IMG/VR virus record: IMGVR_UViG_3300043409_001318
Location: 32,001-96,000 of that record
From: a virus
Reading direction: 5' to 3' (one strand)
DNA length: 64,000 bases
The notes below the pieces were generated by a model. That model made no database searches. It was not told the origin of the DNA and saw only the letters and a program-made list of their open reading frames with translations. Numbering within the stretch: position 1 is the stretch's first letter; each line of letters opens with the position of its first letter. The translations under genes were made by a program, and so were the position numbers. Positions 11,284 to 55,107 of this stretch are shown here, in pieces.

Positions 11284-14108
11284 TGTCGAAGAACACTCAT
11301 CATTATAACTGGAATTTGTGGTCAAGCAAGAACAAAAAGTTAACAGAAAGAAAGAAAGTTTTGTTAAAAGAGATGGACGAGCAGTTTATTGATATGATAG
11401 AACCAGCTATTATTGCTGCTGGTTCGGGAGCAAATAAAAACTTTGCTCCTTATTTTAATAACAAGAATAGACTTGTAATTAATTATGATGAATCAAAAGT
11501 TAATTATATTGCTACATTAGGCGCATTATGTAGTAATTACATTAAAGAAACAATAGCAAGACAATCCAAATCTTATCAAGCTACTGATGTTTATAAACAA
11601 GATAGACAACAAGTAGATGATATATTAGCAAAAGTAAGAGAGGATGATCCCCACTCTCATTACAGAGAAGAAAGGTTATTTGGTTATGTGAGATATCCAG
11701 TATTAGATTCTATTAACTTTAATATATCACAAAAAGAAACTATACAAACTGGTGTGGGCGTTGGTGGTGTTGGAACAATAGAGAAAAAAATAACTATATA
11801 TGAACCTGTTCTTGAATATAAAGTCACTAAACCAATATTAATTGGAAGTGAAAAGTATTCAGATCTAAATAGACAAAGCACTACTACTTTTGTTTCTACT
11901 TTTGGAGAAATTCTTAACAGGAATAAAGAAAAAGAATTGTTTAATGAATGGAATGGAGCAAAAGGTATAAGTTCACTTAGAGAAAGTATTTGTCAAGATG
12001 GTGAGGTTGTTAAACAAGCTAAAAAAGAATTTCTTAAAATAAATGAAAGTACAGAAACTTTAAAATTATCATTAAGTAAAAGTTTAGAAGCAAAAGCAAG
12101 TGAATATTCTATTGTTATTTCAAGAGCACCTATCGATGTTTTAAGAATGTCCGACTTTGTTGGTATGGAGTCATGCCATTCTACTGGTCGTGAATATTTT
12201 TATTGTGCTCTTGCTGAATCAAGAAATCAAGGGGCTGTTGCTTATCTTGTAAAGACAGAAGATCTTAAAAAAGTAAATCTAAATGATGAAGAAATATTTA
12301 ATGACCGTCAAAGAAGGGTAGGAGGTATAAATCCAATATCAAGAGTTAGACTTAGAAGAATTTATGATGAAGCATTGAAAAGCGATTATATGGTTGTAGA
12401 AGACGCAATTTATGGTTCCAGAAAAGCTTTCTTTGTTGATACAATAAAAAAATGGGCTTCAAATATTCAAAAAGATGTGTTTGCTTTGGGAAACACACCA
12501 GAAGATATTTATATTCCAGATCCAGATGATATAACTTTAAAGGGTGGAAGTTATACTGACTTGGACCAAAGTGGTTTAGCAAAAGAAATAAGAGATATTA
12601 TTTCTAATTCTATTAAATTAAAATTTGGAAATGAGGTATTAGAACAATATAAAACACAAATTGAATCAATTCGATATATTCAATATACAGGTCAAGAAAA
12701 TGAAAATGAATTAAGTACAGATTGTAGTGATGCTGAAAACCTTAAAGATAGTTGGGAAGACACGGTAAGTAGAGTAGGATATGTTAGTAGTGTTGCGTTT
12801 GATGTAATTTGTAATGGTAGTGGTTTAGATCGTATAGAAATGAATATTGAATTAGAAAGTATTGTAATTGGTAATGGTGAAGAATATAATAATAAGAAAC
12901 GTCGTTTTAATATGACGAAAGTAAAAGAATTATTACAAGGTGGTCATTACCATACTTCATATAGAACCGATGCGATGTTAACAGAAAAGTTGGAAAAATA
13001 CTTTAATAAAATTCCTCACTTTAAAGATCTGGTAGGATATGATGTTGAAGGAAATGTTGTTATAAGTGATGATAGAATAGAGTATACAATAAAATTTATA
13101 GGTAATTATCCAACCTCAAGTGAAGCAGAATATTTATCCGGTAGATTTTATAATGTATTAAAGAAATATGATCTTTATGAATTTGAAGAAGTTTGTTTAG
13201 AATTTGCTGAAGAAATGGGATTGCTTGAAGACCAACCATTTGATATAGCAAACGAATATTCCTTAGAAAAATTTGCTGAAGATCTTTTTAAATCAAGAAA
13301 TCATTTTAGATATAATGAAGGAGAAAGTGAAGAAGGTACAAAAGACGTATATTCTTTAATGGGAAATCCAGAAGGACAAGGACCATCTACAAACAATTCT
13401 CCAATAATAGGAATTATTCCATTTGAATATGAACTTAGAGAGAAGTTTATGGAACTATTCCAATATGGCTCTACTAACTTTCAAGTTTCTTTTAGAAATA
13501 AATTTAGTAATAAAATGTATAAATTAAATTCTTCTGTTGATGAACTTGCTTTACCAAGAGAATATAGTAGTAGACAATATCAAATTCCTATGGGTAAACA
13601 AGGAGACTACGGAAAAGCACTAAGAGCCGTAGCACCATCAGCAAGGATGCCGGATGATGAAAGCTTAAGCATTGTTTTAACTGCTGGAGAAGAAAATACA
13701 TTCCAACAAGCACGAAATACAAAACAAATTGAAGTTAAATTATTGTTAGACATACACATAAATGAAGAAATGCAGTCCGAAAACGAAATTATGAGTACCA
13801 TGAACTTTATGGATATATATGGTGGCGAGAAGTATGATGAACTTATAGGCTTAGCCACAGAAGCATTTAAAGAAGCTTGGAAACAATTTGGATTTGAGAT
13901 GGATAGACTTATTTCTAAATTAAGTGAACCAAAACAAAAGAAACCAGATGATTTTTCTTCATTAGAAGCTGGTGTTCAAACAGGTAATCTTCCGCTTTAT
14001 ACTATGAAGTCTGTTGAACAACCAGAAGATAAGAACGAAGCAAAGAAGAATAAGAAACTACTTATTAATGAAAGATTTAAGCGTTTGCTAAGGAACATGA
14101 AAAAATGA
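11283..14108 (+). CDS. large unknown protein, paralogue 3
   Basis: Same core; TAATG coupling. Confidence 0.9.
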   Translation: MSKNTHHYNWNLWSSKNKKLTERKKVLLKEMDEQFIDMIEPAIIAAGSGANKNFAPYFNNKNRLVINYDESKVNYIATLGALCSNYIKETIARQSKSYQATDVYKQDRQQVDDILAKVREDDPHSHYREERLFGYVRYPVLDSINFNISQKETIQTGVGVGGVGTIEKKITIYEPVLEYKVTKPILIGSEKYSDLNRQSTTTFVSTFGEILNRNKEKELFNEWNGAKGISSLRESICQDGEVVKQAKKEFLKINESTETLKLSLSKSLEAKASEYSIVISRAPIDVLRMSDFVGMESCHSTGREYFYCALAESRNQGAVAYLVKTEDLKKVNLNDEEIFNDRQRRVGGINPISRVRLRRIYDEALKSDYMVVEDAIYGSRKAFFVDTIKKWASNIQKDVFALGNTPEDIYIPDPDDITLKGGSYTDLDQSGLAKEIRDIISNSIKLKFGNEVLEQYKTQIESIRYIQYTGQENENELSTDCSDAENLKDSWEDTVSRVGYVSSVAFDVICNGSGLDRIEMNIELESIVIGNGEEYNNKKRRFNMTKVKELLQGGHYHTSYRTDAMLTEKLEKYFNKIPHFKDLVGYDVEGNVVISDDRIEYTIKFIGNYPTSSEAEYLSGRFYNVLKKYDLYEFEEVCLEFAEEMGLLEDQPFDIANEYSLEKFAEDLFKSRNHFRYNEGESEEGTKDVYSLMGNPEGQGPSTNNSPIIGIIPFEYELREKFMELFQYGSTNFQVSFRNKFSNKMYKLNSSVDELALPREYSSRQYQIPMGKQGDYGKALRAVAPSARMPDDESLSIVLTAGEENTFQQARNTKQIEVKLLLDIHINEEMQSENEIMSTMNFMDIYGGEKYDELIGLATEAFKEAWKQFGFEMDRLISKLSEPKQKKPDDFSSLEAGVQTGNLPLYTMKSVEQPEDKNEAKKNKKLLINERFKRLLRNMKK

Positions 14109-14950
14109 TAATGGAAAGCATATTAAATAATTGGAAAGGCTTTCTCAAAGAAGGCTTTACAGAAGAAGGAACCCCAGACCTTAAATACTATGCTTTCGAT
14201 TGGGATGATAATATAGCCTTTATGCCTACCAAAATTATTCTTCTTGATACAGAGGGTAATGAAGTAGGGATGGCTACCGATCATTTTGCGGAGTATAGAA
14301 CAGAGATAGGTAAGAAAGAGTTTGAATATGAGGGGCACACAATAAAAGACTTTGCTCCATTCCCATTTAGAAATTTTAGAGTTGAAGGTGATACTCAATT
14401 CTTACAAGACGTTATGACTGCTAAATTAGGACCATCATTTCCAGACTTTAAAGAATGTGTTGAAGGTGCTTCTATATTTGCTATAATTACAGCAAGAGGT
14501 CATAATCCAGAAACTCTTAAAGAAGCTTGTAAAAAGTATATTCTTTCTGGTTATGGTGGAATTAATACAGAACAAGTTATATCAAATATTAAAAAATATA
14601 ATGAATTGTATAAATCTTCTGGCTCAACAGATAATTCTAAATTAGTAGATGATTATTTACAAATTTGTAAATTTCATCCTGTAACGTTTGGAGAAGGAAG
14701 CGCAGCAAACCCAGAGCAATTAAAAGTAGTTGCTTTAAATAACTTTATTCAATATGTTAATACAGAAGTAAAGAAAGTTAAAAAACACGCTCAAAAAGGT
14801 TCTAAAATTAAAATAGGTTTCTCCGACGATGATTTCAAGAATATTGAAGCGATGATATCTCACTTTGGGTCAAGAGACGAAAAAGGTAAATTTAAAGCTG
14901 GACGACCACAATCATTAAAGATAAAGTATACAGGCAAACCCCGTGGATAA
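14105..14950 (+). CDS. HAD-superfamily phosphatase (RNA-repair-associated HAD-like)
   Basis: FDWDD motif I, ITARGH motif II, GFSDDD motif IV; ILNNWKGFLKE leader. Confidence 0.8.
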   Translation: MIMESILNNWKGFLKEGFTEEGTPDLKYYAFDWDDNIAFMPTKIILLDTEGNEVGMATDHFAEYRTEIGKKEFEYEGHTIKDFAPFPFRNFRVEGDTQFLQDVMTAKLGPSFPDFKECVEGASIFAIITARGHNPETLKEACKKYILSGYGGINTEQVISNIKKYNELYKSSGSTDNSKLVDDYLQICKFHPVTFGEGSAANPEQLKVVALNNFIQYVNTEVKKVKKHAQKGSKIKIGFSDDDFKNIEAMISHFGSRDEKGKFKAGRPQSLKIKYTGKPRG

Positions 14951-19937: not shown

Positions 19938-20014
19938 GTGGGGATAGCTCAAATGGATAGAGCAAAAGTTTTCTACACTTTAGGTTGAAGGTTCAAGTCC
20001 TTCTCTCCACGCCA
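19938..20014 (+). tRNA. tRNA-Arg(TCT)
   Basis: Cloverleaf; AAAGT/ACTTT stem, loop TTTCTAC; CCA encoded. Confidence 0.92.
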
Positions 20015-20081
20015 CTTTAACAATATGCTATACCGATTATGATGCTTTTAAAAGCTCGTTTAAACCAACTGTAAACATTAT

Positions 20082-20158
20082 CCACCTTTAGCTCAGTTGG
20101 TCAGAGCAATAAGCTTATATCTTATCGGTCCCCCGTTCAAATCGGGGAAGGTGGACCA
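20082..20158 (+). tRNA. tRNA-Ile(TAT)
   Basis: ATAAG/CTTAT stem, loop CTTATAT; CCA. Confidence 0.9.
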
Positions 20159-20174
20159 ATCAGCTTGAAACTAC

Positions 20175-20202
20175 TTGACACCTTTGCGAAGCGTGTTAAA
20201 GT
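20175..20202 (+). promoter_or_regulatory. sigma70-like promoter inside the tRNA array
   Basis: TTGACA-16 nt-TAAAGT. Confidence 0.7.
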
Positions 20203-20221
20203 ATAGGCAAGCAAACAGTAC

Positions 20222-20307
20222 GGCTCCTTGGTGGAATGGTATACACAGCAGACTTAAAATCTGTCGCCCTCACGGGCTTGCGAGTTCAAGTCTCGCAGGA
20301 GCCACCA
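20222..20307 (+). tRNA. tRNA-Leu(TAA)
   Basis: Long variable arm; loop CTTAAAA; CCA. Confidence 0.95.
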
Positions 20308-20313
20308 CTTTTT

Positions 20314-20400
20314 GGGAAGATGGTGTAATGGTAGCCACGACAGACTCAAAATCTGTTGCTTAACGTAAGCGTAAGGGTTCAAGTCCCTTTCTTCCCACCA
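20314..20400 (+). tRNA. tRNA-Leu(CAA)
   Basis: Long variable arm; loop CTCAAAA; CCA. Confidence 0.95.
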
Positions 20401-20406
20401 CATTAC

Positions 20407-20492
20407 GGAGAATTAGTCTAATTGGTAAGGCAACGGATTTGAAATCCGTCGAGGTAAAACTCTTACACGTTCAAGTCGTGTATTCTCCGCCA
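20407..20492 (+). tRNA. tRNA-Ser(TGA)
   Basis: Long variable arm; loop TTTGAAA; G discriminator; CCA. Confidence 0.95.
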
Positions 20493-20497
20493 TTTTA

Positions 20498-20573
20498 GGG
20501 ACGGTAGCTCAGTTGGTAGAGCAAGGGCCTTTTAAGCCCAAGGTCGTGGGATCGTGCCCCACCCGTCCCACCA
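20498..20573 (+). tRNA. tRNA-Lys(TTT)
   Basis: Loop CTTTTAA; atypical T-loop ATCGTGC; CCA. Confidence 0.9.
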
Positions 20574-20579
20574 CTTTTT

Positions 20580-20655
20580 GCCTGTATAGCTCAGTTGGTA
20601 GAGCACTATCTTTGTAAGCTAGTGGTCACCCGTTCAAATCGGGTTACAGGCTCCA
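20580..20655 (+). tRNA. tRNA-Thr(TGT)
   Basis: Loop TTTGTAA; CCA. Confidence 0.92.
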
Positions 20656-20660
20656 CATAC

Positions 20661-20735
20661 GGTCCCATCGTCTAGTGGTTAAGACTCCAGCTTTTCACGC
20701 TGGCAATCGGAGTTCAATTCTCCGTGGGACTACCA
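20661..20735 (+). tRNA. tRNA-Glu(TTC)
   Basis: CCAGC/GCTGG stem, loop TTTTCAC; CCA. Confidence 0.95.
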
Positions 20736-20739
20736 TTTT

Positions 20740-20815
20740 GGCACTATAGCTCAGTTGGTAGAGCAAGCGTTTCATACACGTTCGGTCACTTGTTCAAATC
20801 AAGTTAGTGCCACCA
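20740..20815 (+). tRNA. tRNA with CAT anticodon (elongator Met or Ile2)
   Basis: Loop TTCATAC; paired 1-72 and no three consecutive G-C anticodon pairs, so not an initiator. Confidence 0.9.
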
Positions 20816-20828
20816 TAAAGTTAATTAG

Positions 20829-20913
20829 GGGAGCATCGCATAGCGGCAATTGCAAGGGACTGTAAATCCTTTCTCATACGAGTTCGTTGGTTCGAGTCCA
20901 ACTGTTCCCACCA
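20829..20913 (+). tRNA. tRNA-Tyr(GTA)
   Basis: Loop CTGTAAA; long variable arm; CCA. Confidence 0.92.
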
Positions 20914-20919
20914 TTTTAT

Positions 20920-20996
20920 TCCCGATTAGCTCAGTTGGTTAGAGCAACGGACTGTTAATCCGTGGGTCGTGTGTTCAAATCACACATCGGGAGCCA
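20920..20996 (+). tRNA. tRNA-Asn(GTT)
   Basis: ACGGA/TCCGT stem, loop CTGTTAA; CCA. Confidence 0.95.
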
Positions 20997-22625: not shown

Positions 22626-22826
22626 ATGATGAAAAGAAAGAACAGGTTTGATGTTGGAGACATTATCAAATTTAATTCTACACATGATTTGTCTAGTTAT
22701 TATTATCTAATTGTAGGAGAAGAAACAGAGAATTATTCAGACAATTATTTAGTTCTTTGCTTTGGTGATGGTTATGAATATCCTCTTGAAAAAAGCAACT
22801 CTCACTTCTATGATAAGGTGTCCTAA
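22626..22826 (+). CDS. small SH3/KOW-like protein
   Basis: FDVGDII; ends KVS. Confidence 0.75.
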   Translation: MMKRKNRFDVGDIIKFNSTHDLSSYYYLIVGEETENYSDNYLVLCFGDGYEYPLEKSNSHFYDKVS

Positions 22827-23050
22827 TGCTTCAAATTGGTGATTTGGTTGAATTAGTAAAACATATTGCTCTAAAAAATCAAGACCGCTATAAGGCTGAC
22901 CAACTCTATAAACCTTCTAATGTTTATGGACTTATTACTAAAATCTCCAGCGGTTATTATGATAACAAAGTAAACTATTATACCGTTATGTGGCTTACAA
23001 CGGGCGATAGTTATAAGTATGAAGCAGAAGAATTAGTAAAGGTATCATAA
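22826..23050 (+). CDS. small SH3/KOW-like protein
   Basis: MLQIGDLV; ends KVS. Confidence 0.75.
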   Translation: MLQIGDLVELVKHIALKNQDRYKADQLYKPSNVYGLITKISSGYYDNKVNYYTVMWLTTGDSYKYEAEELVKVS

Positions 23051-23253
23051 TGAAGTATAAAATTGGTGATATTCTTTGTTATGAAGATAAATTTGAAAAT
23101 ACTATTGTTGGTTCAGTACATTTTCTTATTACTGATGTGGATGTGGACGAAGTGCTATATTATTTTATGTGTCTTGATGAAGAAGTTGATCCAAATGCGT
23201 CATATAGTATAACTTTTGTTGATAGTTCCCCAAAATGGAGGAAGGTATCATAA
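23050..23253 (+). CDS. small SH3/KOW-like protein
   Basis: MKYKIGDIL; ends KVS. Confidence 0.75.
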   Translation: MKYKIGDILCYEDKFENTIVGSVHFLITDVDVDEVLYYFMCLDEEVDPNASYSITFVDSSPKWRKVS

Positions 23254-23459
23254 TGAAGTATAAAATCGGAGATATCTGCTATTATCGTGGATATCTCGCA
23301 AAAATTCCAAAATATGTTTTAATTGTTGATGAAGTAAGAGAGGGTCTTAAAGAAATGATATTTTTGGAAGATGGTTATAGATTTGTCGGCAAAGAACTTT
23401 ATTTATTGCCCCTTGACTTCCTTCGAAAGATTGATAAGGTAGAAGAAGAGGAAGCCTAA
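23253..23459 (+). CDS. small SH3/KOW-like protein
   Basis: MKYKIGDIC at the TAATG junction. Confidence 0.75.
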   Translation: MKYKIGDICYYRGYLAKIPKYVLIVDEVREGLKEMIFLEDGYRFVGKELYLLPLDFLRKIDKVEEEEA

Positions 23460-23683
23460 TGTTCCAAATTGGTGACCTTGTTCAAGTGAAAACACGCCTC
23501 AAAAACGATGCAGATAATCGACAATTAGTAGGAATTGTTGAAAGTGTTGTAGACGGTAAAGTTGGCGTTCGTTATTTAAATACTAATGACTTTGGATTTC
23601 ATATTTATAGTGGTATTACAGTTTACACAAATCCCCTTGACTATCTTCGAAAGATTGATAGTATTGTTGAAAAGGTAAAGTAA
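23459..23683 (+). CDS. small SH3/KOW-like protein
   Basis: MFQIGDLV. Confidence 0.75.
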   Translation: MFQIGDLVQVKTRLKNDADNRQLVGIVESVVDGKVGVRYLNTNDFGFHIYSGITVYTNPLDYLRKIDSIVEKVK

Positions 23684-23684
23684 A

Positions 23685-24011
23685 ATGGAAATCCCCCTTA
23701 CTTATTCTTCGCAAGCAGTTAAGGCCCGTGGAAATAATATTAATGAGAAACTACAATATCTTATTAATTGGTATACAAAAACAGGTAAGGATATTGAACC
23801 TTCTTGGGAATTTCAACGAGAACTTATGGAGTTTACAAAGCATTGGACTTTTGGACTTATCCAGCTTATGCGCGAAACTCCCGAAGAAACAAAGGAAGAA
23901 ATTATTAATCATCTACCGGATATTGAATATGTAATAATGAATTCTAAAAAGTCAGCTAATACGGTAGGTGCTATGTATCTTTATTGTGAACTACAAAATA
24001 TTGTGAGGTAA
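23685..24011 (+). CDS. hypothetical protein
   Basis: AAGG RBS; operonic. Confidence 0.7.
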   Translation: MEIPLTYSSQAVKARGNNINEKLQYLINWYTKTGKDIEPSWEFQRELMEFTKHWTFGLIQLMRETPEETKEEIINHLPDIEYVIMNSKKSANTVGAMYLYCELQNIVR

Positions 24012-40331: not shown

Positions 40332-40339
40332 ACTATTTA
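40332..40339 (+). promoter_or_regulatory. putative late promoter ACTATTTA
   Basis: Same octamer at 41642, 42270, 42911, 44962, 45878, 49651, 49952, 57522 and 58130. Confidence 0.65.
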
Positions 40340-40362: not shown

Positions 40363-41586
40363 ATGAAAAATTTATTTGAAAACTGGAAGGCTTACCTCAA
40401 GGAAGCAATCGTAGATACTCCTAGTGAGAGACTGTCTGATGTTTTTGATGATAATGGGGTTATGCAAGAAAAAGTTATCGCTGTTATCAAGGACGCAAAA
40501 GAAAAACTTGATAAGTTCTTAAGCTCTCAAAATTTAAAAATAACAGAAATGTTTGTTGTTGGTGCTGCTGTTACTTATCAGTTTTCTCCTTCTTCCGATA
40601 TCGATACAACCGTTGTTATTCCAAACATAACAGATGAACAGTCGAAACAAGTTGATAATTGGATGGAAGAAAACTTAAATTATTCAAATTGGTCTGTTGA
40701 TGGAAGTAGCCGTCCTTTTCAATTTAAACCAGCTTCATCAAATATTGGATACAAAAATGTAGACGCAGCTTATGATCCTTTTAATAAGAAATGGATTAAA
40801 GAACCAAACCTTGAAACAACAAAGAAAGAATATAATCAAGTTGTTTCGGACCCGCAATCAAAAGAAAGAAAGATGTATGCCTTTGTTGAGAAACACATTC
40901 AACCATCTTTACAACAGTTGCTTAACATATTAAGCAACACAAGTTTAAATGAAAACGTTTCTGATAATATTAAAAATGCAATTAAAAATGCTTTCAAACG
41001 TTATGAAGTATTAAAAAAGAAAAGAGGTACTGCATACGGAGAAGAACCTTCACAAACAGGACGTATAAGCCAAAATTGGGGATTAGGAAACGTTTTATAT
41101 AAATTTTTAGATAGAGAAGGCTATAGTGAAGTATATGGGTATTTGAAAAAAGCAATTAAATCTGACTTCAAGATTGTTGATCAAGATTTTATAAACAATC
41201 TTAAACAAAAATTAGAAAATGTTCTCAAAGGAGAGCATGGTTATTCAGTAAATGAAACAAAGGAAAAAAATAAAATGGCTAAATTAACAGAATCATATTT
41301 AAGAGGTATGATAAAACAAGTAATGAATGAAATGCATGATATGTATGATGATTCACCAGAAGCTATGGGTAATGCTGCTGACGAGTATAGTATGGGCGGC
41401 TTTGATTCTATTGAAGAAACTGCTAAAAGATTGGGCGTTAATCCTATGAAATTAAAAGCATTTATAGAGAAAGAACAAGCTGGTGCAAGTGCTATGTATG
41501 ACGAAATGGGAGATGATCCTAATGACTATTTAGCAGAAAGAAAAAGATTTCTATCTAATTCAAGAACTGCTCCAAAACGTAGATAA
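40363..41586 (+). CDS. Pol-beta-superfamily nucleotidyltransferase with ENW leader and fused C-terminal module
   Basis: VVGAAVTYQFSPSSDIDTTV (G-x-D-x-D); internal RBS and ATG at 41275. Confidence 0.8.
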   Translation: MKNLFENWKAYLKEAIVDTPSERLSDVFDDNGVMQEKVIAVIKDAKEKLDKFLSSQNLKITEMFVVGAAVTYQFSPSSDIDTTVVIPNITDEQSKQVDNWMEENLNYSNWSVDGSSRPFQFKPASSNIGYKNVDAAYDPFNKKWIKEPNLETTKKEYNQVVSDPQSKERKMYAFVEKHIQPSLQQLLNILSNTSLNENVSDNIKNAIKNAFKRYEVLKKKRGTAYGEEPSQTGRISQNWGLGNVLYKFLDREGYSEVYGYLKKAIKSDFKIVDQDFINNLKQKLENVLKGEHGYSVNETKEKNKMAKLTESYLRGMIKQVMNEMHDMYDDSPEAMGNAADEYSMGGFDSIEETAKRLGVNPMKLKAFIEKEQAGASAMYDEMGDDPNDYLAERKRFLSNSRTAPKRR

Positions 41587-41654: not shown

Positions 41655-42266
41655 ATGAAAACACTATTAGAAAATTGGAAAAAATTTATAAATGAGCAAT
41701 CCCACATAATGGGAAACTATGAAGGACAAACTACAGAAAAAAAAGATAAACTTATTTCTTTCTTTGATGATTTGAAAAATATGAACAAAGAAAATGCAAA
41801 TCAAATTGCTTCTGTTTTATTGGGAACAAAACCTTTATATTTTAGTGCTGTAACTGTAATTCCTAATAATAAGTTCTCTCAAAAGTTTTTAGATTATTTA
41901 AGGTCTAGAAATATGATGTTTGCATCAGCTCCAAATATAATGGGAACTGGTAGTAATATATTTTTTATTGGAAATAAAGATAAAGTTGCACAAGCTTTAG
42001 AATTACAAAAAAATCCTTATATTGGTATTGAAAAAATGGGATTTTCTTCTGAGTTTAACAGCTGGGCAAAAGAAAATGCAAAACGTGAGATAGCTGCAAC
42101 TCCCGAATATCATAAAAGAATGGGAATTTTATTGGGATATGGAGAAGCTAATTCCGAGAAATTTTCTCAAGATTATATTTCAAAATGGAAAGAAGTATAT
42201 TCTCATTGGCAACAACAATCTCAAGACACTAATTCTTCTAATAGTTCTAAAACAGAAGTATTATAA
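41655..42266 (+). CDS. hypothetical protein with ENW leader
   Basis: MKTLLENWKKFINE; YHKRMGILLGY motif. Confidence 0.8.
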   Translation: MKTLLENWKKFINEQSHIMGNYEGQTTEKKDKLISFFDDLKNMNKENANQIASVLLGTKPLYFSAVTVIPNNKFSQKFLDYLRSRNMMFASAPNIMGTGSNIFFIGNKDKVAQALELQKNPYIGIEKMGFSSEFNSWAKENAKREIAATPEYHKRMGILLGYGEANSEKFSQDYISKWKEVYSHWQQQSQDTNSSNSSKTEVL

Positions 42267-42909: not shown

Positions 42910-42923
42910 TACTATTTAATAAC

Positions 42924-43778
42924 ATGAAACTCTTATTAGAAAATTGGAATCGTTATCTTAAAGAAAGTGAAATAGTTTCTTATCAACAACAAGTTGGAGA
43001 TATTGAAACAATCGCTCAAGATATCTCCGATAAAGTTCAAGAGTTTATGTCCGATCATGGATACGATTGGTTACGACAAAATGCCAGCATTGTTGAAAAA
43101 GAAATTCAAGATGAAATAAGAAAAAACTTTAATCGTGATATAACAGAAGCTGGTAGTGGTTCATTTAGAACAACATATATGGTTGATAATGATTATGTTA
43201 TTAAAGTTGATTCTTCTATAAATGGTTCTGGAAAACAAATGAATAAAGAAGATGGAGAAGTTGGAAGAAATCCAAAGTATTCTTCAATCTTTCCAAAAGC
43301 TTTAGGTGTTGCTCCAGATGGTTCTTGGGTTGTATTACAAAAAGTTCATGAGATACAAGATTTAAAAACTTTAATTACTCTTTTTCCAAATAAAATAATT
43401 CCATCTACATCGTTTGGAAAATTTTATACTCAATCATTATTATCTATTGCTTTAAGTTATCAAGTAGCTGCTTTACAATACGACCAAAATCAAATGGATT
43501 TTCACAAATATCAATATGAAAGTATGTTTAAAAATTCTTTAGTAAAAGATATTGGTAGAGACGTTACTTTTCAAGAATTTATAAAATCTTGGATATCTCC
43601 TACATTTATAACGGTAGCAAAAGCTGTTATAGAATATGGTTTAGACGCTGATGAAGCTGTGCGTCCTTATAATTCTGGATATGTTGTTGAAGAGAATGGA
43701 GAAAAAAGATTTGTTATTCTTGATTCATCCGTTCAAAAAACCGTGGAAGCTGGTCTTAATGCTTTTAACAACCCATAA
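42924..43778 (+). CDS. protein-kinase-like fold protein with ENW leader (atypical)
   Basis: GSGSFRTTY G-loop, YVIKV, VRPYN, VILDS. Confidence 0.78.
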   Translation: MKLLLENWNRYLKESEIVSYQQQVGDIETIAQDISDKVQEFMSDHGYDWLRQNASIVEKEIQDEIRKNFNRDITEAGSGSFRTTYMVDNDYVIKVDSSINGSGKQMNKEDGEVGRNPKYSSIFPKALGVAPDGSWVVLQKVHEIQDLKTLITLFPNKIIPSTSFGKFYTQSLLSIALSYQVAALQYDQNQMDFHKYQYESMFKNSLVKDIGRDVTFQEFIKSWISPTFITVAKAVIEYGLDADEAVRPYNSGYVVEENGEKRFVILDSSVQKTVEAGLNAFNNP

Positions 43779-43790: not shown

Positions 43791-44747
43791 ATGATGAAAT
43801 TATTATTAGAAAATTGGAAAAGATATATTAAAGAAGAATTAAGACCAGAAGATTATGAAGATTTCCCACAAAAAGAAAATGAAGAAGCAGAAGCTTATTT
43901 AGGAAATCCAAAAGAAATTGGTGAATTTATTTATAGAGCTTTTCGTGAAGAACTTGAAAAGCAACCAGATGATACTGAAGCTCAACTTTGGTCCGATAGA
44001 ATTGTAAGCGATGCTAATTCTAAAATTAGAAAACAATTTCCAAATGTAAAGTATCTTGGTCATGGTGTATTTAGAACTGCTTTTACGTTAAACAAAAATT
44101 TAATTATAAAAGTTAATACTTCTTTTACAACTGATAGCGGGCAGTTAATGAATAAAGACGATTTTACATTAAGTCGTGATTCTAAAACTTCTAAAATATT
44201 TCCAAGAGTTTATTCTCACGATCCAAACTTTAATTGGATTGTTATGGACTTGGTTTTTCCAATTGTAACACCAAAAGAATTTTGTTCTTTCTTTCCAAAC
44301 AAATTAATTCCTTCTTCTTTGATTAGCAGTAATACTATATTTTATAGATCAATATTACAAAATTCTATAAGATATAAAGTTGCTAAAGTTGCACAAGACG
44401 ACGAAACACTGAAAAAGGTTCAATACTTACATGATGCTACTATTAAAACTACATTAGAACCAATAGTAGGTAAACCTATAACTGTGGAAGAAATAGTTAG
44501 TGGATTTGACCAAACATTTTTTGAAGTTTGTAGTGCTATTGAAAAATATAATATAAAAATTATAGAAATAAGACCAAATAATACAGGCTTCACGATTGGT
44601 GAAAGTGGTAATAAACAATTTGTAATTTTAGATTCTTCAATTGACGCAAGTTTAAAAAAAGGACTTAATGAACCAGAACCTAAAGCTGCTCCTCCAAAAC
44701 CAGATAAACAAATATTAAATGCTGTAACTGCTCCCCCTAAAAAATGA
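43791..44747 (+). CDS. protein-kinase-like fold protein with ENW leader (atypical), paralogue
   Basis: GHGVFRTAF, LIIKV, EIRPNN, VILDS. Confidence 0.8.
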   Translation: MMKLLLENWKRYIKEELRPEDYEDFPQKENEEAEAYLGNPKEIGEFIYRAFREELEKQPDDTEAQLWSDRIVSDANSKIRKQFPNVKYLGHGVFRTAFTLNKNLIIKVNTSFTTDSGQLMNKDDFTLSRDSKTSKIFPRVYSHDPNFNWIVMDLVFPIVTPKEFCSFFPNKLIPSSLISSNTIFYRSILQNSIRYKVAKVAQDDETLKKVQYLHDATIKTTLEPIVGKPITVEEIVSGFDQTFFEVCSAIEKYNIKIIEIRPNNTGFTIGESGNKQFVILDSSIDASLKKGLNEPEPKAAPPKPDKQILNAVTAPPKK

Positions 44748-44999: not shown

Positions 45000-45293
45000 A
45001 TGAAAATTACAGAAGCTAAAATACGTCAAGTAATAAAAGAAGAAATACAAAACGTATTAAATGAAATGCACAATGAAGATCCAACATCATTAGGACTTAC
45101 TGGTCCAAAAGTTGCTGCTGGCGTTGCTGGGGCTGTTGGTGTCAACGGATTAATTAAATACTTAGAACAAGCTTTAATGGAACATCCAGAATGGAGAGAT
45201 AACGTAGAAAAATTTTTAATGGCAGGCAACGAAACAATTAATAGTGTTGGTAATGCTGTCAGCGGTATGTTTGAAAATAAAAAAAGAAAATAA
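45000..45293 (+). CDS. probable virion protein
   Basis: MKITEAKIRQVIKEEIQNVLNE leader; late motif at 44962. Confidence 0.75.
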   Translation: MKITEAKIRQVIKEEIQNVLNEMHNEDPTSLGLTGPKVAAGVAGAVGVNGLIKYLEQALMEHPEWRDNVEKFLMAGNETINSVGNAVSGMFENKKRK

Positions 45294-46637: not shown

Positions 46638-46919
46638 ATGTTAACAGAAAGAAGACTTAGACAAGTAATTCGCAAAATAATTATGGAAGTTACTGGTGCG
46701 GACGCAGAAAGATTTACGGCAATTGCCAATTCAGCCAGACAACAAATGGGTTCTGAACAAGAAAAATTTTTTAATAATAAATTAGGTAGTTCCGATAAAG
46801 AAAGAGCTAATAACATACAAAGGCTTCAACATTTAATTATGGGTGGAAAAGATATTGAACCTAAAGATAAGGGAGCAGTTTCTACTCTAATCCAGAAAGC
46901 ACTTGCTGAATTAAAATAA
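46638..46919 (+). CDS. probable virion protein
   Basis: MLTERRLRQVIRKIIME leader. Confidence 0.75.
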   Translation: MLTERRLRQVIRKIIMEVTGADAERFTAIANSARQQMGSEQEKFFNNKLGSSDKERANNIQRLQHLIMGGKDIEPKDKGAVSTLIQKALAELK

Positions 46920-46950: not shown

Positions 46951-47358
46951 ATGGAACGTCCTTCGTGGGATTTTATTTGGTCCTCATTTGCTTCTACAAT
47001 CGCTCAACGTTCTATGGACCCTAACTTCAAGGTGGGTGCCGTAATCGTTCCAGAAGACAATACAGGTGTGCTGGCGATTGGATATAACGGCGATGAGAAA
47101 GGTGGAGAGAATTGTAGGGATAGCGAAGAAACTGGTTCATCTGGTTTTATTCACGCTGAGATAAACGCACTTATTAAGATGGATTTTAATAACCCAAAAA
47201 GAAAGAAAATGTATGTAACTCTTTCTCCTTGTAAGATGTGCGCGAAAGCAATTATTAATGCAGATATAAAAGAAGTTTATTACATACAAGAATACCGTGA
47301 TGATGCAGGAATTAAATTACTACAAAATCACGGTATTAAGGTTTGTAAGATTATCTAA
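46951..47358 (+). CDS. dCMP deaminase family
   Basis: HAEINAL and SPCKMC zinc motifs. Confidence 0.92.
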   Translation: MERPSWDFIWSSFASTIAQRSMDPNFKVGAVIVPEDNTGVLAIGYNGDEKGGENCRDSEETGSSGFIHAEINALIKMDFNNPKRKKMYVTLSPCKMCAKAIINADIKEVYYIQEYRDDAGIKLLQNHGIKVCKII

Positions 47359-48329
47359 ACAGGAATGTCGGAAGGCTTTGAAGTTCTTGTTGGTCTTTCG
47401 TTTGGATCGGCTGGTGTTAAAGCGGTTATATCTGATCTTGAATCAAGATAATTAATAACTGCTTTTAATACAAGCATAAGCATGTTTACGTCTGCTAATG
47501 CATCGTGCCAACCTTTATTTACAATGTCAAAGGCATCAATTAATTTACCAAGGGAAACGGTAAAGTATGGAGCACCAGCTTTATTTACTGCTGAGAGTTT
47601 AGTTAATAAACGCTTATCTTTCTCTGATAGATTTTTTCCTTGTTCTTCATCAGCTTTAAATTGTTTTAAGGCTGGTGTAATAAACATTTTGAATACTGGT
47701 ACTGTATCTAAAACAGCATCGTCAAGAACTGGAATTCCATATCTTTGGTGCATTTCATTAAGGTATCCAACATCGAACGGAGCATTTTGAGCTACCAATA
47801 TTCTATCTGGGTATTGTTGTACAAATTCATTAAATTTTGTTAGTGCTTCTTCCATAGATTCAAAACGAAATTCTGGTGCTATACCTTTTTTCATTCTTTT
47901 CTTTGGATCTTGTGAAACACCATAACCTGTCATAGAAAAGATTTGTGGAATAGTCATAAATGAGCTTTTCTCACCAGCAGCAGCTCTTTCTGCTTGCTTT
48001 TTCTTTTCCCAACCCATAAATCCTTTTGTTCTGTCGGATAAATTAATTTTAATATTAATTTGACCTATGATTTGTGGTTCTTGACCTTCTTCAAATCCTT
48101 TTGGATCAACAGCAATAGCAGCTAATTGTGTGATTTGATTGTAATCTTTTTCTGGTTTAAGACCTGTTGTTTCTGTATCAAAGAAAATCCAAGTTTTGTT
48201 TCTTGCACTTTCAACATTATTTCTAAATTCTGGAAAACTTCCACCAATTTCATCTCTGGTCATAGTTCTTTCATTAACGACTTTTTTAAACCCTCTCCAG
48301 CTTTCCATAATCAAACCAAAATTTTTCAT
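47355..48329 (-). CDS. DEDDh 3'-5' exonuclease (DnaQ-like) with leader
   Basis: FFDTETTG, VAQNAPFD, WHDALAD; IMESWRGF..VVNE leader; ACTAATTA on minus strand 48352-48359. Confidence 0.92.
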   Translation of the reverse strand: MKNFGLIMESWRGFKKVVNERTMTRDEIGGSFPEFRNNVESARNKTWIFFDTETTGLKPEKDYNQITQLAAIAVDPKGFEEGQEPQIIGQINIKINLSDRTKGFMGWEKKKQAERAAAGEKSSFMTIPQIFSMTGYGVSQDPKKRMKKGIAPEFRFESMEEALTKFNEFVQQYPDRILVAQNAPFDVGYLNEMHQRYGIPVLDDAVLDTVPVFKMFITPALKQFKADEEQGKNLSEKDKRLLTKLSAVNKAGAPYFTVSLGKLIDAFDIVNKGWHDALADVNMLMLVLKAVINYLDSRSDITALTPADPNERPTRTSKPSDIPV

Positions 48330-48380
48330 TTATAAACCCTCACTTTATTGGTAATTAGTATTTAAAAACTAATTAGATAT

Positions 48381-48815
48381 ATGAACACAAAAAAATGGTA
48401 TAAATTTCTTCGCGAACAACAAGAAGAAGAAAAAGAAAATGGTATAGCATTAACAAAAAACGAAGAAGACATTAATGCTGACCCAATTGAAAAACATTCT
48501 GGATTAGATCCAATTGTTACAGATGATATTTCTGTATTTCAACTTGTTGTTAAAGCAGAATTTCGTAAAGGATCAAAAGTTCTTCTTACACAATTCAAAG
48601 ATATTATTAGAGGTATTGTTTCTGTTACTACAGTTGGAACGGAAGATCTTCCAGATGCCTCCGAAATGTATGATAGAAGGAATCTTAATGTTAAATTTGA
48701 ATTAGAACGTGGTGAGAATATCGATGAATATATGAGAGCCGTTCTTATTCCTCAATTAAGAAAGATTAGAGGTATGAGAGTTCTACATTACGGAAAAATA
48801 GAAAAAGTAAGATAG
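48381..48815 (+). CDS. probable virion protein
   Basis: KKWYKFLRE leader; ACTAATTA at 48368. Confidence 0.75.
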   Translation: MNTKKWYKFLREQQEEEKENGIALTKNEEDINADPIEKHSGLDPIVTDDISVFQLVVKAEFRKGSKVLLTQFKDIIRGIVSVTTVGTEDLPDASEMYDRRNLNVKFELERGENIDEYMRAVLIPQLRKIRGMRVLHYGKIEKVR

Positions 48816-49948: not shown

Positions 49949-49964
49949 AGGACTATTTAATATT

Positions 49965-51851
49965 ATGAAATTTATGCTAAATAAACAAACTGGTGTCTTT
50001 ATTTTAAGAGAAGATATATTTGATAGAATCTCTCGTCAAGCTAAGGCTGAGGTCGGATCAGAAATAGCTAGTGAAAATGCCGCTGCTTCTGATAGAGCTG
50101 CGGCATTTTTAAAATCAATTGATAGGGTTAGAGATAATTATATCAAACAACTTTATGAGAAAAAAGAAACTGATAAACCTTCTTATTTAACTATTATTCC
50201 TTTGTTGGTTGATAAAGCCACTTCTAATAATTTAATAAACGAAATTAAAAAAAGTATTGATAAAGTTAACGCTGAATGTACACCATTTTTTACTGATATA
50301 AGAGATAAAAAACAAGTTGATTATAATAAACTTATTAATGCGTTACAGATAAATCTTAAAGGTACAGTTGCAAGATTAGTATTAGAAGCCATATCTGGAC
50401 CACCATTACAAACAGAAGTAATATTTCAATCAATTATAAAAAATTATATTGCTTTTTTAATAAACGAAACTTTATTAAAAGATTTATCTGATGAAGATAA
50501 AAAAAATGTTTTTGGAAATGAGGAAAATTTTAAAAAATTTCAACAAATTTTTAGTAAAATGTTAATGGCAACAGATGAAGAAATTAAAGTTTATCAAGTT
50601 TCTCTTCAAAAATATAATATAGCAAAAGATAAATTAAAAACAAAAAGTCCAGAAGAAGCAAAAGAAGAAGAAGATACAAAAAGAGCAGAAAAAAAAGAAC
50701 AAGATGAACTTAGACTATATTTAACAGGAAAGAATAAAGAATTAGCCCGTTTTGTTCGTATATATGGTATTCTTTCAAGAACAGAGGGCATAGGTGATCA
50801 AGATAAACATCAACAGGTTATTGACGACTTTGAATCATATATTGATGAATTTTCTGATTTAATTGATAGTAATGAAAAACTTGATAAAGAAGGATCAAAA
50901 GATCGGATGGAACTGATATTAAATTCTATAGAGATGAAATATGGTTCTCTTAAAGATGAGCTTAAAGAATTAAATGCAGCAAAAGCAGTAAAAGAATCAA
51001 AAACTCTCAAAGAATATAGAGAAGAAATTAACAATCTTCTTATTCCTCACATGCAGAAACAACTTGGTTTTAATCATCCTCCAACAATTAATTTTGCTGA
51101 TGATCAAGGAAACGCACAAGATATGTTTGGAAAAACAGCATATTATAATCCAAGCACAAGCGAAATAACCGTTTATATAACCAATAGACACCCAAAAGAT
51201 ATCATGCGTTCTGTTGCTCACGAAGTAATACACCACGCACAGAACCAAAGAGGAGAGTTTGAGAACTCATTTAATCTTGGTGAAGAAGGTTACGCACAAA
51301 ACAATTCCCATTTAAGAAGTATGGAAGAAGAAGCTTATTTAAGCGGAAACATGATATTTAGAGATTGGGAAGATCAATTTAAAAAACAAAGGAACCAAAA
51401 AACTATGGTAAACGAAAATAATTTAAGAGCCAAGATAAGATCTATGATTGTTGAAGAAATCGCCAATCAAACCGAGAACAAGCCAGCCAAAGAACATGAT
51501 AGTAATTGCGAATGTGAAGATTGTAGTAAGAAAAGAACATTCTTAAAGAATAAGGGTGTTAAAAACATAGCTGAGAAAGTTGAAAAAGAAATTATGCCAC
51601 TTAAAGAATGGAGAAATATGGAATTAAACTCATTACTTCTTCATAGATTTGGTCTTGTTTCTCCACAAGTTTTAGGTGAGAAGAAAAAAATGCCTATGAA
51701 AAAAGATATAGAAGATGCCGATGGTGATGGGGATACAAATGAAAAAGTACCAGCTTTCTTGAAAAAAGGAAGTGCTAAAAAAACTCCAACCAAGAAAGGT
51801 AAAGTCCCACCACAATTTTTAAAAGGTAAGAAAAAAGATGAAAGCAAGTAA
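49965..51851 (+). CDS. large probable virion protein with HExxH metallopeptidase domain
   Basis: RHPKDIMRSVAHEVIHHAQ..E; DADGDGD loop; LxE segments. Confidence 0.8.
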   Translation: MKFMLNKQTGVFILREDIFDRISRQAKAEVGSEIASENAAASDRAAAFLKSIDRVRDNYIKQLYEKKETDKPSYLTIIPLLVDKATSNNLINEIKKSIDKVNAECTPFFTDIRDKKQVDYNKLINALQINLKGTVARLVLEAISGPPLQTEVIFQSIIKNYIAFLINETLLKDLSDEDKKNVFGNEENFKKFQQIFSKMLMATDEEIKVYQVSLQKYNIAKDKLKTKSPEEAKEEEDTKRAEKKEQDELRLYLTGKNKELARFVRIYGILSRTEGIGDQDKHQQVIDDFESYIDEFSDLIDSNEKLDKEGSKDRMELILNSIEMKYGSLKDELKELNAAKAVKESKTLKEYREEINNLLIPHMQKQLGFNHPPTINFADDQGNAQDMFGKTAYYNPSTSEITVYITNRHPKDIMRSVAHEVIHHAQNQRGEFENSFNLGEEGYAQNNSHLRSMEEEAYLSGNMIFRDWEDQFKKQRNQKTMVNENNLRAKIRSMIVEEIANQTENKPAKEHDSNCECEDCSKKRTFLKNKGVKNIAEKVEKEIMPLKEWRNMELNSLLLHRFGLVSPQVLGEKKKMPMKKDIEDADGDGDTNEKVPAFLKKGSAKKTPTKKGKVPPQFLKGKKKDESK

Positions 51852-52352: not shown

Positions 52353-54362
52353 ATGGGTCTAAGCAGCATACCACACGTTTATGATGATAAAGAATTAAAG
52401 TATGAAGAAGTAGTAGAAATACTTACAAAAGCTGCTAATGGTAGAATTCAAGGAACTGAAAAAACAGATGGTCTTAATTTGTTTCTTGGTTATAAAGATG
52501 GTCAACCAAAAGCAGCAAGAAACTTTACTGAAATAAGCCAAGGTGGTTTAGATGCTGAAGCTTTTGCTGATAGAGAATTTAAAGCTGATGATCACATAAA
52601 AGAAATATTTAGAGCAGCTTTTAATGCTTTCTCTAATGTTGTTAAACACTTAAATCAAGAACAAATTAATATTTTGTTTGGAACTAATGGAAATACATTT
52701 TTAAATTGTGAGATTATCTCTGGTAAAACAAATGTTATTACATATGATACACAAGTTATATTAATTCATCGTTCTGGTCACAAAGAATTTAATACTGCAA
52801 CTGGGAAAGTTGAGTCAGTTAGAGAAGATAAACAAAAAGCAATTTCTATTATGATAAGTAACTTTAATGAAGTTATGCAGCAAATGTTAAACGGAACAGA
52901 ATTTAAAGTTCAGCAAGATAGATTAGAAAGACTACCAGCATTAGAAGACCAATCAACATTAGCCAATACAATTCAAAAACTAAAACAAGCTGGTTTTAAA
53001 GAAGGTATGACTATTAATGATTACCTCTTACGAAAGTCTCTTGCATATGTTAAAGAGAAACTACCATCCTTAAATAATGAAATAACAATAGAAGTAGCAA
53101 AGAAGATAGTTGGAACAAAAGGAGCAGATAGTATTACTGTTCTTAAAAGTTATGTTAATCAAAATCCTAAATTTGTTGAAGAATTACAAAATTTAGTAAA
53201 AAGAAAAGAAGAAATAGTTGATGAAATTACTTTTCCTATTGAAGATGCTATACATGATTTTACTGTAGAAATATTAAGTAAGTTAAATTCACAATTCGTT
53301 CAAGATAAAGAAAAGTCAACAGAAGTAATAAAACAAGAATTAGCAAAGAAAGTAAAAGAATTACAAAACTATAATGGACCAGATAGAGAAAAGGTACATA
53401 ATAAATTAAAGAAACAATTATTAAAGTTAAAACATATAGATAAGATATCAAGTCCAACTGAAGGATTTGTTTTTAATTATAATAGTAAGATGTATAAGTT
53501 TACTGGTAATTTTGCTCCAGTAAATCAAATAAGAAATATGAAGATTAACCAAGAAACAGATACTTCTGGTGCTTCAAGTATGAACTTTAATCTTAAAGAG
53601 AATAAATCTAAAATTGGTATATTTCCGGGTTCTTTTAGACCACCACATAAAGGTCATTTAGATCTTATTAAAAAAGCCTTACCAAATTACTCTAAAATAA
53701 TTATATTAGTCTCTCAACCAGAAAAGAATATGAGATCAGATATTTCAGCAGAACAATCAAAACAAATATTTGATGAATATACAAGAGGTCTTCCAGTAGA
53801 AACAAGAACTTGTGGTAAAAGTTCTCCATATGTAGAAGCTGCTGATATGATTAAAAGTGGAGAAGGTAATGTTGTGTTAACTTCCGACAAAGAACCAACA
53901 AAATTTGATAAGTTTAATTTTCCAAAAGAAGTTATACATGCAGAACATAATATTAGCGCAAGTCAAATGAGAAACATTATTGGATCTGAAAAAACAAGAG
54001 AAGAAAAGAAAGCAGAATTATTAGGATATTTACCAGAGAAAATTGATAGTGAAATAATCTTCAATGTGTTATTAAATCAAGAAGATCCTATTTCGTTACA
54101 AGAGATATTTTCAATGATAGAAAACTTACCAATAAAAGAAAATAATTCTTCTTCAAATACATTGAAAATGGAAGATATATTTGGTATATTAGATGAAATG
54201 TCTGGTGCTGCTGTTGGTTCCAGTATGTCTGCTGGTGCGGTTGAAGGGGCATCTATGCTTACGTCTAAACCACAAAGAAAAAAGAAAAAAACAAGAACTT
54301 ATACACTTGAAGAGATAATTAATATGTCTAACAATTATCTAAAGGAATCTAAAAATGATTAA
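52353..54362 (+). CDS. ligase-like nucleotidyltransferase domain fused to HxGH cytidyltransferase-like domain
   Basis: TEKTDG, EGFV, YKFTG.FAPVNQ; FPGSFRPPHKGH. Confidence 0.72.
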   Translation: MGLSSIPHVYDDKELKYEEVVEILTKAANGRIQGTEKTDGLNLFLGYKDGQPKAARNFTEISQGGLDAEAFADREFKADDHIKEIFRAAFNAFSNVVKHLNQEQINILFGTNGNTFLNCEIISGKTNVITYDTQVILIHRSGHKEFNTATGKVESVREDKQKAISIMISNFNEVMQQMLNGTEFKVQQDRLERLPALEDQSTLANTIQKLKQAGFKEGMTINDYLLRKSLAYVKEKLPSLNNEITIEVAKKIVGTKGADSITVLKSYVNQNPKFVEELQNLVKRKEEIVDEITFPIEDAIHDFTVEILSKLNSQFVQDKEKSTEVIKQELAKKVKELQNYNGPDREKVHNKLKKQLLKLKHIDKISSPTEGFVFNYNSKMYKFTGNFAPVNQIRNMKINQETDTSGASSMNFNLKENKSKIGIFPGSFRPPHKGHLDLIKKALPNYSKIIILVSQPEKNMRSDISAEQSKQIFDEYTRGLPVETRTCGKSSPYVEAADMIKSGEGNVVLTSDKEPTKFDKFNFPKEVIHAEHNISASQMRNIIGSEKTREEKKAELLGYLPEKIDSEIIFNVLLNQEDPISLQEIFSMIENLPIKENNSSSNTLKMEDIFGILDEMSGAAVGSSMSAGAVEGASMLTSKPQRKKKKTRTYTLEEIINMSNNYLKESKND

Positions 54363-55107
54363 CGAGAAAGAAGCAGTAAGATTGTATATTAGAAAAGCAA
54401 TACAATTATATAAAGAAAGCAAAAAACAACAAGAAATTTTAGAAGAAACAAAATTAAGACAACTTGTTCGTGGTCTTATCTTAAGAGAAGTAGCAGAGGA
54501 CCAACCAAAGCACGCTTCAACTGGTATTAACGTTCTTGAAGATCTATTAAAAAAAATTATTCCAGTTCTTCAAGCAGACTTCAAAATGATTACAACCTCC
54601 GAACAACAAAGAAAATCATTTAGAGCACATTTAGTTAATGCTATTCAAAATTCATTATCACCAGAATTAATGTATGTTCTTTCCGACAAAGAAAAAGAAC
54701 AACTTAAAGAAGCAGCAACAATTAAGGTAGATGATCCAGATATGGAAAAATTTATTGATATTGAAGAACCAGTAGACGAACCAGAAGAAGAAGTTTCACC
54801 AGAAGAACAATTTTCAAAAGGACTTGAAGATCAAAACTTAGATACAACTGGTAGAAATATGGCTATGGATACTTTTAACAAGGTTGAAAAAGGTATTCTA
54901 AGTGCTTATGAACTTCTTGACGACGCAAAAGATAGAGAGTTGTTCTACGATTATCTTATTACAAATATGAAATTATACTTTGATAAATTTGAAGAAGAAA
55001 TGAACCCATCTGGTATTACTGAACCAACCACACCAGAATACGAAGCAGAGAAAGATCGTAAAGAAGCAGAAGATACAGGAACAGCACAAACTCCAGAAGG
55101 TCTTTGA
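54355..55107 (+). CDS. probable virion protein
   Basis: EETKLRQLVRGLILRE leader; TGINVLEDLLKKI. Confidence 0.75.
   Translation: MINEKEAVRLYIRKAIQLYKESKKQQEILEETKLRQLVRGLILREVAEDQPKHASTGINVLEDLLKKIIPVLQADFKMITTSEQQRKSFRAHLVNAIQNSLSPELMYVLSDKEKEQLKEAATIKVDDPDMEKFIDIEEPVDEPEEEVSPEEQFSKGLEDQNLDTTGRNMAMDTFNKVEKGILSAYELLDDAKDRELFYDYLITNMKLYFDKFEEEMNPSGITEPTTPEYEAEKDRKEAEDTGTAQTPEGL

Follow-up and report, generated by a model that had tools for sequence, protein, structure and literature searches.

The 64,000-nucleotide stretch of DNA analyzed here (the window) covers bases 32001-96000 of IMG/VR virus record IMGVR_UViG_3300043409_001318, a single contig of 184,352 bp that is the genome of an uncultured T4-type phage with a GC content of ~33% and nearly all its genes on the + strand. 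Across this genome about 20 unrelated proteins start with one or the other of two short N-terminal peptides, called here the type 1 (T1) and type 2 (T2) leaders. On the strength of sequence comparison we suggest, with moderate confidence, that these leaders are T4-style capsid-targeting propeptides, the counterparts of the T4 capsid-targeting sequence (CTS), and that they tag a protein for loading into the capsid. The genome encodes a large terminase (TerL, PHROG 2), a gp20-type portal (PF07230, Portal_T4, E 4.5e-76), an S77 prohead protease of the T4 gp21 family (genome 154097-154690; PF03420, Peptidase_S77, E 7.4e-28; PHROG 207, head maturation protease, E 2e-53) and a gp23-type major capsid protein (genome 166708-168465; PF07068, Gp23, E 2.6e-72). 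Its closest cultured phages, Microcystis phage Mel-JY01 and Flavobacterium phage immuto, are distant, with identities of 36-48% in the capsid protein and 43% in TerL. Coordinates below refer to the window unless they are marked as genome positions.

The T1 consensus, M-K-x-L-L-E-N-W-K/N-x-F/Y-L/I-K/N-E, is 14 residues long, with hydrophobic residues at positions 4, 5, 8, 11 and 12 and a Glu at position 14. At least nine proteins begin with it; their genes start at 14111, 40363, 41655, 42924, 43794 and 48381, at genome 9402 and 10702 and, on the minus strand, in a gene whose coordinates end at 48329. The T2 consensus, M-K-I-T-x-x-Q-L-R/K-Q-I/V-I-K-E-E, extends over ~22 residues to a second hydrophobic-x-E and opens at least eight proteins (gene starts at 45000 and 46638 in the window, and at genome 23153, 147539, 153401, 154705, 155122 and 156293). 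A hidden Markov model (HMM) of T1, built from the IMG/VR leaders of other phages only, matched eight N-termini in this genome (E 5e-8 to 0.035), and a T2 model built in the same manner gave eight matches, all of them at residues 1-23; with both models the first non-member matches appeared only at E >0.1. In six-frame scans both motifs were found at the starts of open reading frames (ORFs), the exceptions being two internal copies and a few matches in non-coding frames. All the leaders quoted by an earlier sequence-only reading of the window exist at the genes in which it had placed them, and the genome-wide scans add further members.

Within the window the tagged genes encode a varied set of proteins. 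A HAD-like phosphatase candidate (14105..14950, +) carries the T1 leader MESILNNWKGFLKE at 14111-14152 (T1 HMM E 0.003); it has no Pfam or PHROG match, and the HAD label is a lead only, which comes from its Atlas neighbours (DUF2608/acid phosphatase), while relatives have tagged HAD_SAK_1 proteins. A Pol-beta-type nucleotidyltransferase candidate (40363..41586, +; T1 leader at 40363-40404, E 3.7e-7) contains the G-x(11)-D-I-D motif of such enzymes and a sub-threshold PF01909 match (E 0.0068); PDB sequence searches with this protein and the HAD candidate returned nothing useful. The peptide MAKLTESYLRGMIKQVMNE, previously taken for the N-terminus of a third type 2 protein, is not a gene start: it is one of the two internal copies and lies in frame at 41275-41331, at residue 305 of this same nucleotidyltransferase ORF, where it precedes a module of ~100 amino acids that in the relative L102 is a stand-alone T2 gene. 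Next comes a 203-amino-acid protein of no assigned function (41655..42266, +) with the leader MKTLLENWKKFINE (E 4.9e-8), followed by two kinase-like paralogues. The first of these (42924..43778, +; leader MKLLLENWNRYLKE, E 1.4e-7) aligns with the family of the second and retains the G-x-G-x-F-R, V-I-K, N and D-S-S motif. The second, a protein-kinase-like protein (43794..44747, +), has the leader MKLLLENWKRYIKE; the initial assignment of this leader holds, although the gene most likely starts at 43794 and not at 43791. In an alignment of 20 sequences (the 43794 protein, its paralogue at 42924 and 18 homologues) residues M1-E6 and E14 of the leader are invariant and the linker is hypervariable. 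The leader is thus the most conserved segment of the family, yet it is flexible in an AF2 model of the 43794 protein (predicted local distance difference test, pLDDT, 79 overall; <50 for residues 1-32), and the modelled leader would behave like a detachable peptide. A Foldseek search with this model gave top matches that are all kinase-like, to APH(2''), choline kinase and PRPK (probability 0.9-1.0, with low TM scores).

Two ORFans carry T2 leaders, one of 97 amino acids (45000..45293, +; MKITEAKIRQVIKEEIQNVLNE, T2 HMM E 3e-9) and one of 93 (46638..46919, +; MLTERRLRQVIRKIIME, E 0.045), the latter with an L102 homologue that has the same leader. The minus-strand gene at 47355..48329 encodes a DEDD (RNase T-type) exonuclease, a solid assignment (PF00929, E 4.6e-13), behind a long T1 variant, MKNFGLIMESWRGFKKVVNE, at 48270-48329 (T1 HMM E 0.035); its homologues have the canonical T1 (MKILLENWKKYINE) or other variants. 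The last of the series is a 144-amino-acid protein (48381..48815, +) with a short T1 variant, MNTKKWYKFLRE, the L102 orthologue of which has MNTSKWYRFLRE. Untagged housekeeping genes, for a dCMP deaminase, a GH46 hydrolase, an RNase H-like protein and PhoH, are interspersed among these tagged genes. The second internal copy, a T1, is at genome 2740, at residue 175 of an ORF that fuses a 2H phosphoesterase to a DSP phosphatase (genome 2218-3585). L-N-E is present on both sides of this internal T1, and the same ORF has a type-2-like peptide, …LRRVIRRLIRE, near its C-terminus, which could be a C-terminal propeptide by analogy with T4 Alt. The proposal that a portable leader sits on unrelated proteins is supported by comparison, with a kinase-like fold, a DEDD exonuclease, a Pol-beta-type nucleotidyltransferase motif, a HAD-like protein and the 2H and DSP phosphatase among its bearers. 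A tagged protease, which had been proposed as part of the cargo, was not found; the candidate ORF at 54355-55107 is without a protease signature. It was rejected as a tagged protease, having only a vague type-2-like helix and no family match, and not being recovered by the T2 HMM.

Shared N-termini of this sort could in principle be the result of common descent or of a DNA-level element, such as the edge of a recombination cassette or a translation-initiation or regulatory RNA site, and not be a peptide signal at all. The leaders do begin with the start codon, A-rich ones (ATG AAA…) are numerous, and the tagged genes are located in variable arrays as they would be in recombination-prone loci. 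Nevertheless, the conserved leader positions use all six Leu codons and both codons each of Lys, Glu, Asn and Phe; hence the amino acids are fixed while the synonymous sites vary freely, which indicates selection on the peptide and not on the DNA or RNA. Moreover, the bodies behind the leaders have unrelated folds, the upstream regions differ (some have a Shine-Dalgarno sequence and some a promoter-like motif 13 nt away), and the Trp and the terminal Glu are retained despite changes in the spacing. We consider this explanation highly improbable.

The same leaders are widespread in IMG/VR. A degenerate DNA pattern of the T1 core was found in >119 IMG/VR contigs, with a Met exactly four residues upstream in ~90% of the matches listed, and a degenerate T2 pattern in >120 contigs, the preceding codon being Met in 142 of the 151 distinct ORFs among the matches listed. 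As a control, the T1 pattern gave 28 matches in 596 Gb of prokaryote genomes, which is about the number expected by chance, and only one of these looked like a phage-style N-terminus. The tags are virus-only. That sole match (MKTIFENWNNFLNE, on a 210-amino-acid ORF) is in a metagenome-assembled genome binned as candidate division WOR-3 (L161, CP070664.1); it may belong to a prophage, or to a phage contig that was wrongly binned, and could give a hint of the host. In the loci fetched among the matches listed, the bodies of the 233 T1 ORFs make up ~102 unrelated families and those of the 77 T2 ORFs 58. The Pfam domains behind T1 include HAD_SAK_1, RNase_T, SAM lyase, PolyA_pol-type nucleotidyltransferase, NUDIX and, in one relative, ART-PolyVal, as well as Pkinase, P-loop kinases, thioredoxin and SpoVR; SAM lyase is found behind T1 and T2 alike. 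When relatives are compared, one cargo family can bear the canonical tag, a variant tag or none. A 135-amino-acid protein of this genome (genome 146270-146677) has the degenerate start MIKILVKDLNKLKSF-CPEAT…, and its orthologues in many relatives have the canonical T1 MKLLFENWKKFINEAKELVCPKAT…, as if the tag of a conserved cargo had decayed here. The cargo island had no DNA similarity match among GenBank phages, and full-text literature searches with the motif strings and the names of the nearest cultured phages retrieved no earlier description and no virion proteomics.

What connects the leaders to the phage head is, in the first place, the manner in which they end. Both terminate in hydrophobic-x-Glu; the Glu ending anticipated by the sequence-only reading is there at the sequence level, as expected for the phage's own S77 prohead protease. 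A loose set of 239 proteins was retrieved solely with the N-terminal M…[E/N][N]W pattern and includes non-leaders such as capsid-protein N-termini. The E is at W+6 in 173 of them; in the recognisable leaders of the remainder it is displaced by 1-7 residues and is mostly still part of a hydrophobic-x-E (…FLLKE, …KKDILNE, …SLLNE). The second hydrophobic-x-E of T2 peaks at residues 21-22 (84 of 151 among the matches listed). The maturation site of T4 gp23, L-T-E|A (NC_000866), aligns with L-L-R-E|S/A in the capsid proteins of the clade and with I-S-E|A and V-S-E|A in those of Mel-JY01 and immuto, and so the specificity of the protease is probably conserved; an S77 protease is encoded by four of the five large tagged contigs of relatives.

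The second connection is one of gene order. In six relatives a T1 gene separates the protease from the portal-side genes; in this genome a T2 gene occupies the same slot, which in T4 holds the core genes 67 and 68. TerL was present within the fetched flank of 63 of 116 T2 loci and 32 of 119 T1 loci among the matches listed, against an expectation of ~8%. It is quite unlikely, in our judgment, that the leaders recruit proteins to some other hub (a replication or transcription factory, the membrane, a chaperone), or mark protease substrates for timed activation or turnover, with no loading of the capsid. Such an explanation draws on the fact that amphipathic helices are generic interaction modules, that several tagged genes are outside the structural region, that the cargo is acidic and that no binding partner was identified. 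It has to contend with the enrichment of tagged genes beside the terminase, portal and protease genes, with a terminal hydrophobic-x-E that is the head protease site at the aligned cut of the capsid protein, and with a T4 precedent that, as far as the cited accounts of it go, follows the same logic.

Transcription signals bear on this question as well. The motif ACTAWTTA, which resembles a late promoter, has 48 copies on the + strand versus 11 on the - strand, and 34 of the 48 are followed, 8-60 nt downstream, by a start codon (2.9 expected). The observation that it precedes most of the leaders was correct: it is ahead of six of the nine T1 genes versus 16% of all genes. In and near the cargo genes its copies are at 40332..40339 (+), at 41642, 42911, 44962 and 48368, and at ~48352-48359 on the minus strand. 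It reads ACTATTTA 13 nt before the ATG of the 41655 gene and 38 nt upstream of the 45000 gene, and ACTAATTA ~30 nt upstream of the exonuclease gene and 13 nt before the ATG of the 48381 gene. Copies are found also ahead of scaffold-like, tube-candidate, baseplate-region and other structural-region genes, and a promoter motif common to the structural genes argues against a hub unrelated to the virion. Seven genes have an ACTAWTTA whose first base is 12-13 nt upstream of the ATG (13 nt in six of them) and no Shine-Dalgarno sequence; such short-spaced sites are at 41642-41657, 42911-42926, 48368-48383 and 49952-49967, and at genome 31406 and 174928. Should ACTAWTTA be a late promoter of a -10-like kind, the mRNAs of these seven genes would be leaderless or nearly so.

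The T2 proteins require separate consideration. Mostly they are small ORFans of the head operon, with bodies of a median 107-111 amino acids that are almost without enzyme domains, and T2-like starts such as MKKSQLRQIIKE are present in the cultured Flavobacterium phage immuto. They may be parts of the core or scaffold and not delivered enzymes. In its full form, this alternative holds that the T2 proteins, and perhaps some T1 proteins, belong to the prohead core or scaffold, like T4 gp67, gp68 and gp22, where they would assist in building the head, and are then degraded by the protease and expelled without ever being delivered. The size and nature of the T2 bodies favor it, as do the T2 genes that flank the protease and portal genes and the presence of TerL in over half of the T2 loci among the matches listed; furthermore, the cited accounts describe T4 core proteins as being cut to peptides that exit the head (PMC9546572, PMC9026906). 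However, the T2 bodies belong to at least 58 unrelated families and are present several times per genome in variable arrays, unlike a conserved structural part; one of them is a SAM lyase, and the enzymes behind T1 are left unexplained. As an account of the leaders we regard it as rather unlikely, though not negligible.

The capsid-loading interpretation that we prefer can be put as a sequence of steps. A short amphipathic N-terminal helix would dock a protein made late in infection into the scaffolding core of the prohead during its assembly; the S77 (gp21-family) protease would then clip the leader after its terminal Glu, at (L/I/V/F)-x-E, and the mature protein would remain inside the head. 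T1 (…LLENWxxFLxE) would serve mostly enzymes and giant proteins, and T2 (MKITxxQLKQIIKEE…LxE) mostly small ORFans, some of them perhaps core components, whose genes are next to those for the portal, the protease and the terminase; the internal tags of the two fusion ORFs would be joints at which the chains are cut apart. By analogy with T4, delivery at injection and a role in counter-defence are plausible. A more elaborate version, which we think unlikely, involves two addresses: T2 would sort small proteins to the prohead core, while T1 would mimic the propeptide helix of the capsid protein (capsid L-L-x-K-W-x-K-T-G-L-L-E-G versus tag L-L-E-N-W-K-x-F-L-x-E), so that a pre-loaded kit of enzymes would use the docking site of the shell protein. 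The kit would consist of kinase-like, nucleotidyltransferase, HAD, 2H/DSP phosphatase, exonuclease, NUDIX, SAM lyase and ADP-ribosyltransferase (ART) proteins, and it would process RNA ends and nucleotide signals in the host before phage gene expression.

Several observations weigh against loading into the capsid. The tags have no sequence homology to the T4 CTS, MKTYQEFIAE, and are longer (14 and ~22 residues versus 10). The residues that follow the terminal Glu are not consistently small (A/S/G), in contrast to those of the classic gp21 sites. The T1 HMM gave no significant match to the propeptide of the capsid protein itself; the resemblance between the two is a lead at the level of regular expressions, and a shared docking motif is hence not demonstrated. 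Unlike the basic T4 internal proteins, the cargo has neutral to acidic bodies (17% D+E versus 12.7% K+R), with the net charge of the tagged proteins of this genome mostly near 0 or negative. The T1-tagged genes at genome 9402 and 10702 are placed among replication genes. Finally, it is by analogy that we infer that the tagged proteins dock, are cleaved, stay in the virion and are ejected into the host.

Upstream of the HAD candidate there are three tandem giant paralogues of 1052, 859 and 941 amino acids (5546..14108, +) with divergent T1 leaders that have a W and then L-x-E-M. Their N-termini align column for column with the canonical T1 leaders, MKLILENWNKFLKE...LNE, of homologues in relatives, the M, W and E being invariant, and in relatives such T1-tagged homologues (~800 amino acids) are placed between the capsid genes and the sheath gene. 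A core, …S-R-x-P-x-D-V-x-R-M-S-D…S-C-H…C-A-x-x-E…G-G-S-Y-x-D, is conserved, and homologues are present in many relatives. The giant paralogues matched no Pfam family, and a model of their core (pLDDT 59) gave no convincing fold: Foldseek matches had E >=0.1 (GNAT-like rows only), and VIA gave a helical hairpin only.

Other parts of the window have distinctive features of their own. A 522-amino-acid ORF at 752-2320 has an N-terminus that by eye is GroEL-like, and its homologue in the relative L016 is 65% identical. An array of 11 tRNA genes (Arg, Ile, two Leu, Ser, Lys, Thr, Glu, Met, Tyr and Asn) is at 19938-20996. It is followed, at 22626-38456, by >30 small genes (50-105 amino acids) that have in common an N-terminal …(F/Y)-x-I-G-D-I-V… motif and often overlapping stop and start codons. 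The 32000-36000 stretch is GC-rich (48.5% versus ~33%) and contains a MoxR-type AAA ATPase (33334-34470); close to it, at 38894-40063, is a DUF2201 metallopeptidase/VWA protein. No Rfam match was found in the GC-rich stretch at ~32-36 kb, which together with 38894-40063 may be a recently acquired block.

If the tags act like the T4 CTS, the proteins that are packed in the head of an uncultured phage, and passed to the host together with the DNA, could be recognized from sequence alone. Some 100 protein families of a widespread aquatic T4-type clade would then be candidate effectors of the first minute of infection, among them kinase-like proteins, nucleotidyltransferases, phosphatases, exonucleases, SAM lyases and an ADP-ribosyltransferase, and the T4 idea would no longer concern just a handful of small basic proteins but also a large set of enzymes. 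The two tags would, in addition, be new and compact address peptides with which to load foreign proteins into T4-type capsids.

How far the comparison with known systems can be taken varies from one system to the next. Polyvalent proteins of phages and conjugative elements are reportedly multi-domain effectors that Iyer, Aravind and colleagues proposed to enter the host with the DNA. The cargo described here recalls them in its Kinase-PolyVal relationship (an Atlas lead), in the ART-PolyVal, HAD_SAK_1, nucleotidyltransferase and NUDIX domains found behind the tag and in the two fusion ORFs with internal tags; it differs in being mostly single-domain, each protein with a tag of its own, instead of one giant multi-domain chain. 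In phiKZ, 201phi2-1 and SPN3US, the propeptides of many head-internal proteins are, in the account cited, cut after Glu by a distant relative of gp21 (PMC9026906). The passages cited mention no shared short address peptide in these phages (PMC9026906), and the phage analyzed here is not phiKZ-like.

The closest parallels are with T4 itself. The T4 enzyme Alt is, in the passages cited, packaged, trimmed by gp21 and ejected (PMC9026906, PMC9546572). As a head-carried enzyme with short propeptides cut after Glu, it is, so far as those passages describe it, a better model for the present cargo than IPI-III, and an ART-PolyVal domain is found behind T1 in a relative, although no ADP-ribosyltransferase was found among the tagged genes of the window. 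Alt is, however, on the same description a single protein with its own 7-residue propeptide, whereas the tag here is family-wide. The CTS proper is the sequence MKTYQEFIAE with which T4 IPII and IPIII start (read from NC_000866). According to the cited accounts its residues 4 and 7 target the core, its residues 8 and 10 direct cleavage by gp21, and it will load foreign proteins too (PMC9026906, PMC3012670, PMC9546572). The differences from this system are considerable: IPI-III are small, basic and DNA-associated, whereas the cargo here is mostly neutral or acidic and includes many enzymes of 150-1200 amino acids, and there are two families of tag, internal tags in fusion ORFs and far more cargo families in the clade. 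The likeness is in the plan: a short N-terminal peptide on otherwise unrelated proteins, with hydrophobic positions and then a terminal (L/I)-x-E, in a phage with head proteins of the gp23 and gp20 types and a protease of the gp21 family, and with cargo sets that vary among relatives. T1, though not homologous to the CTS, reads as the T4 pattern plus one helical turn.

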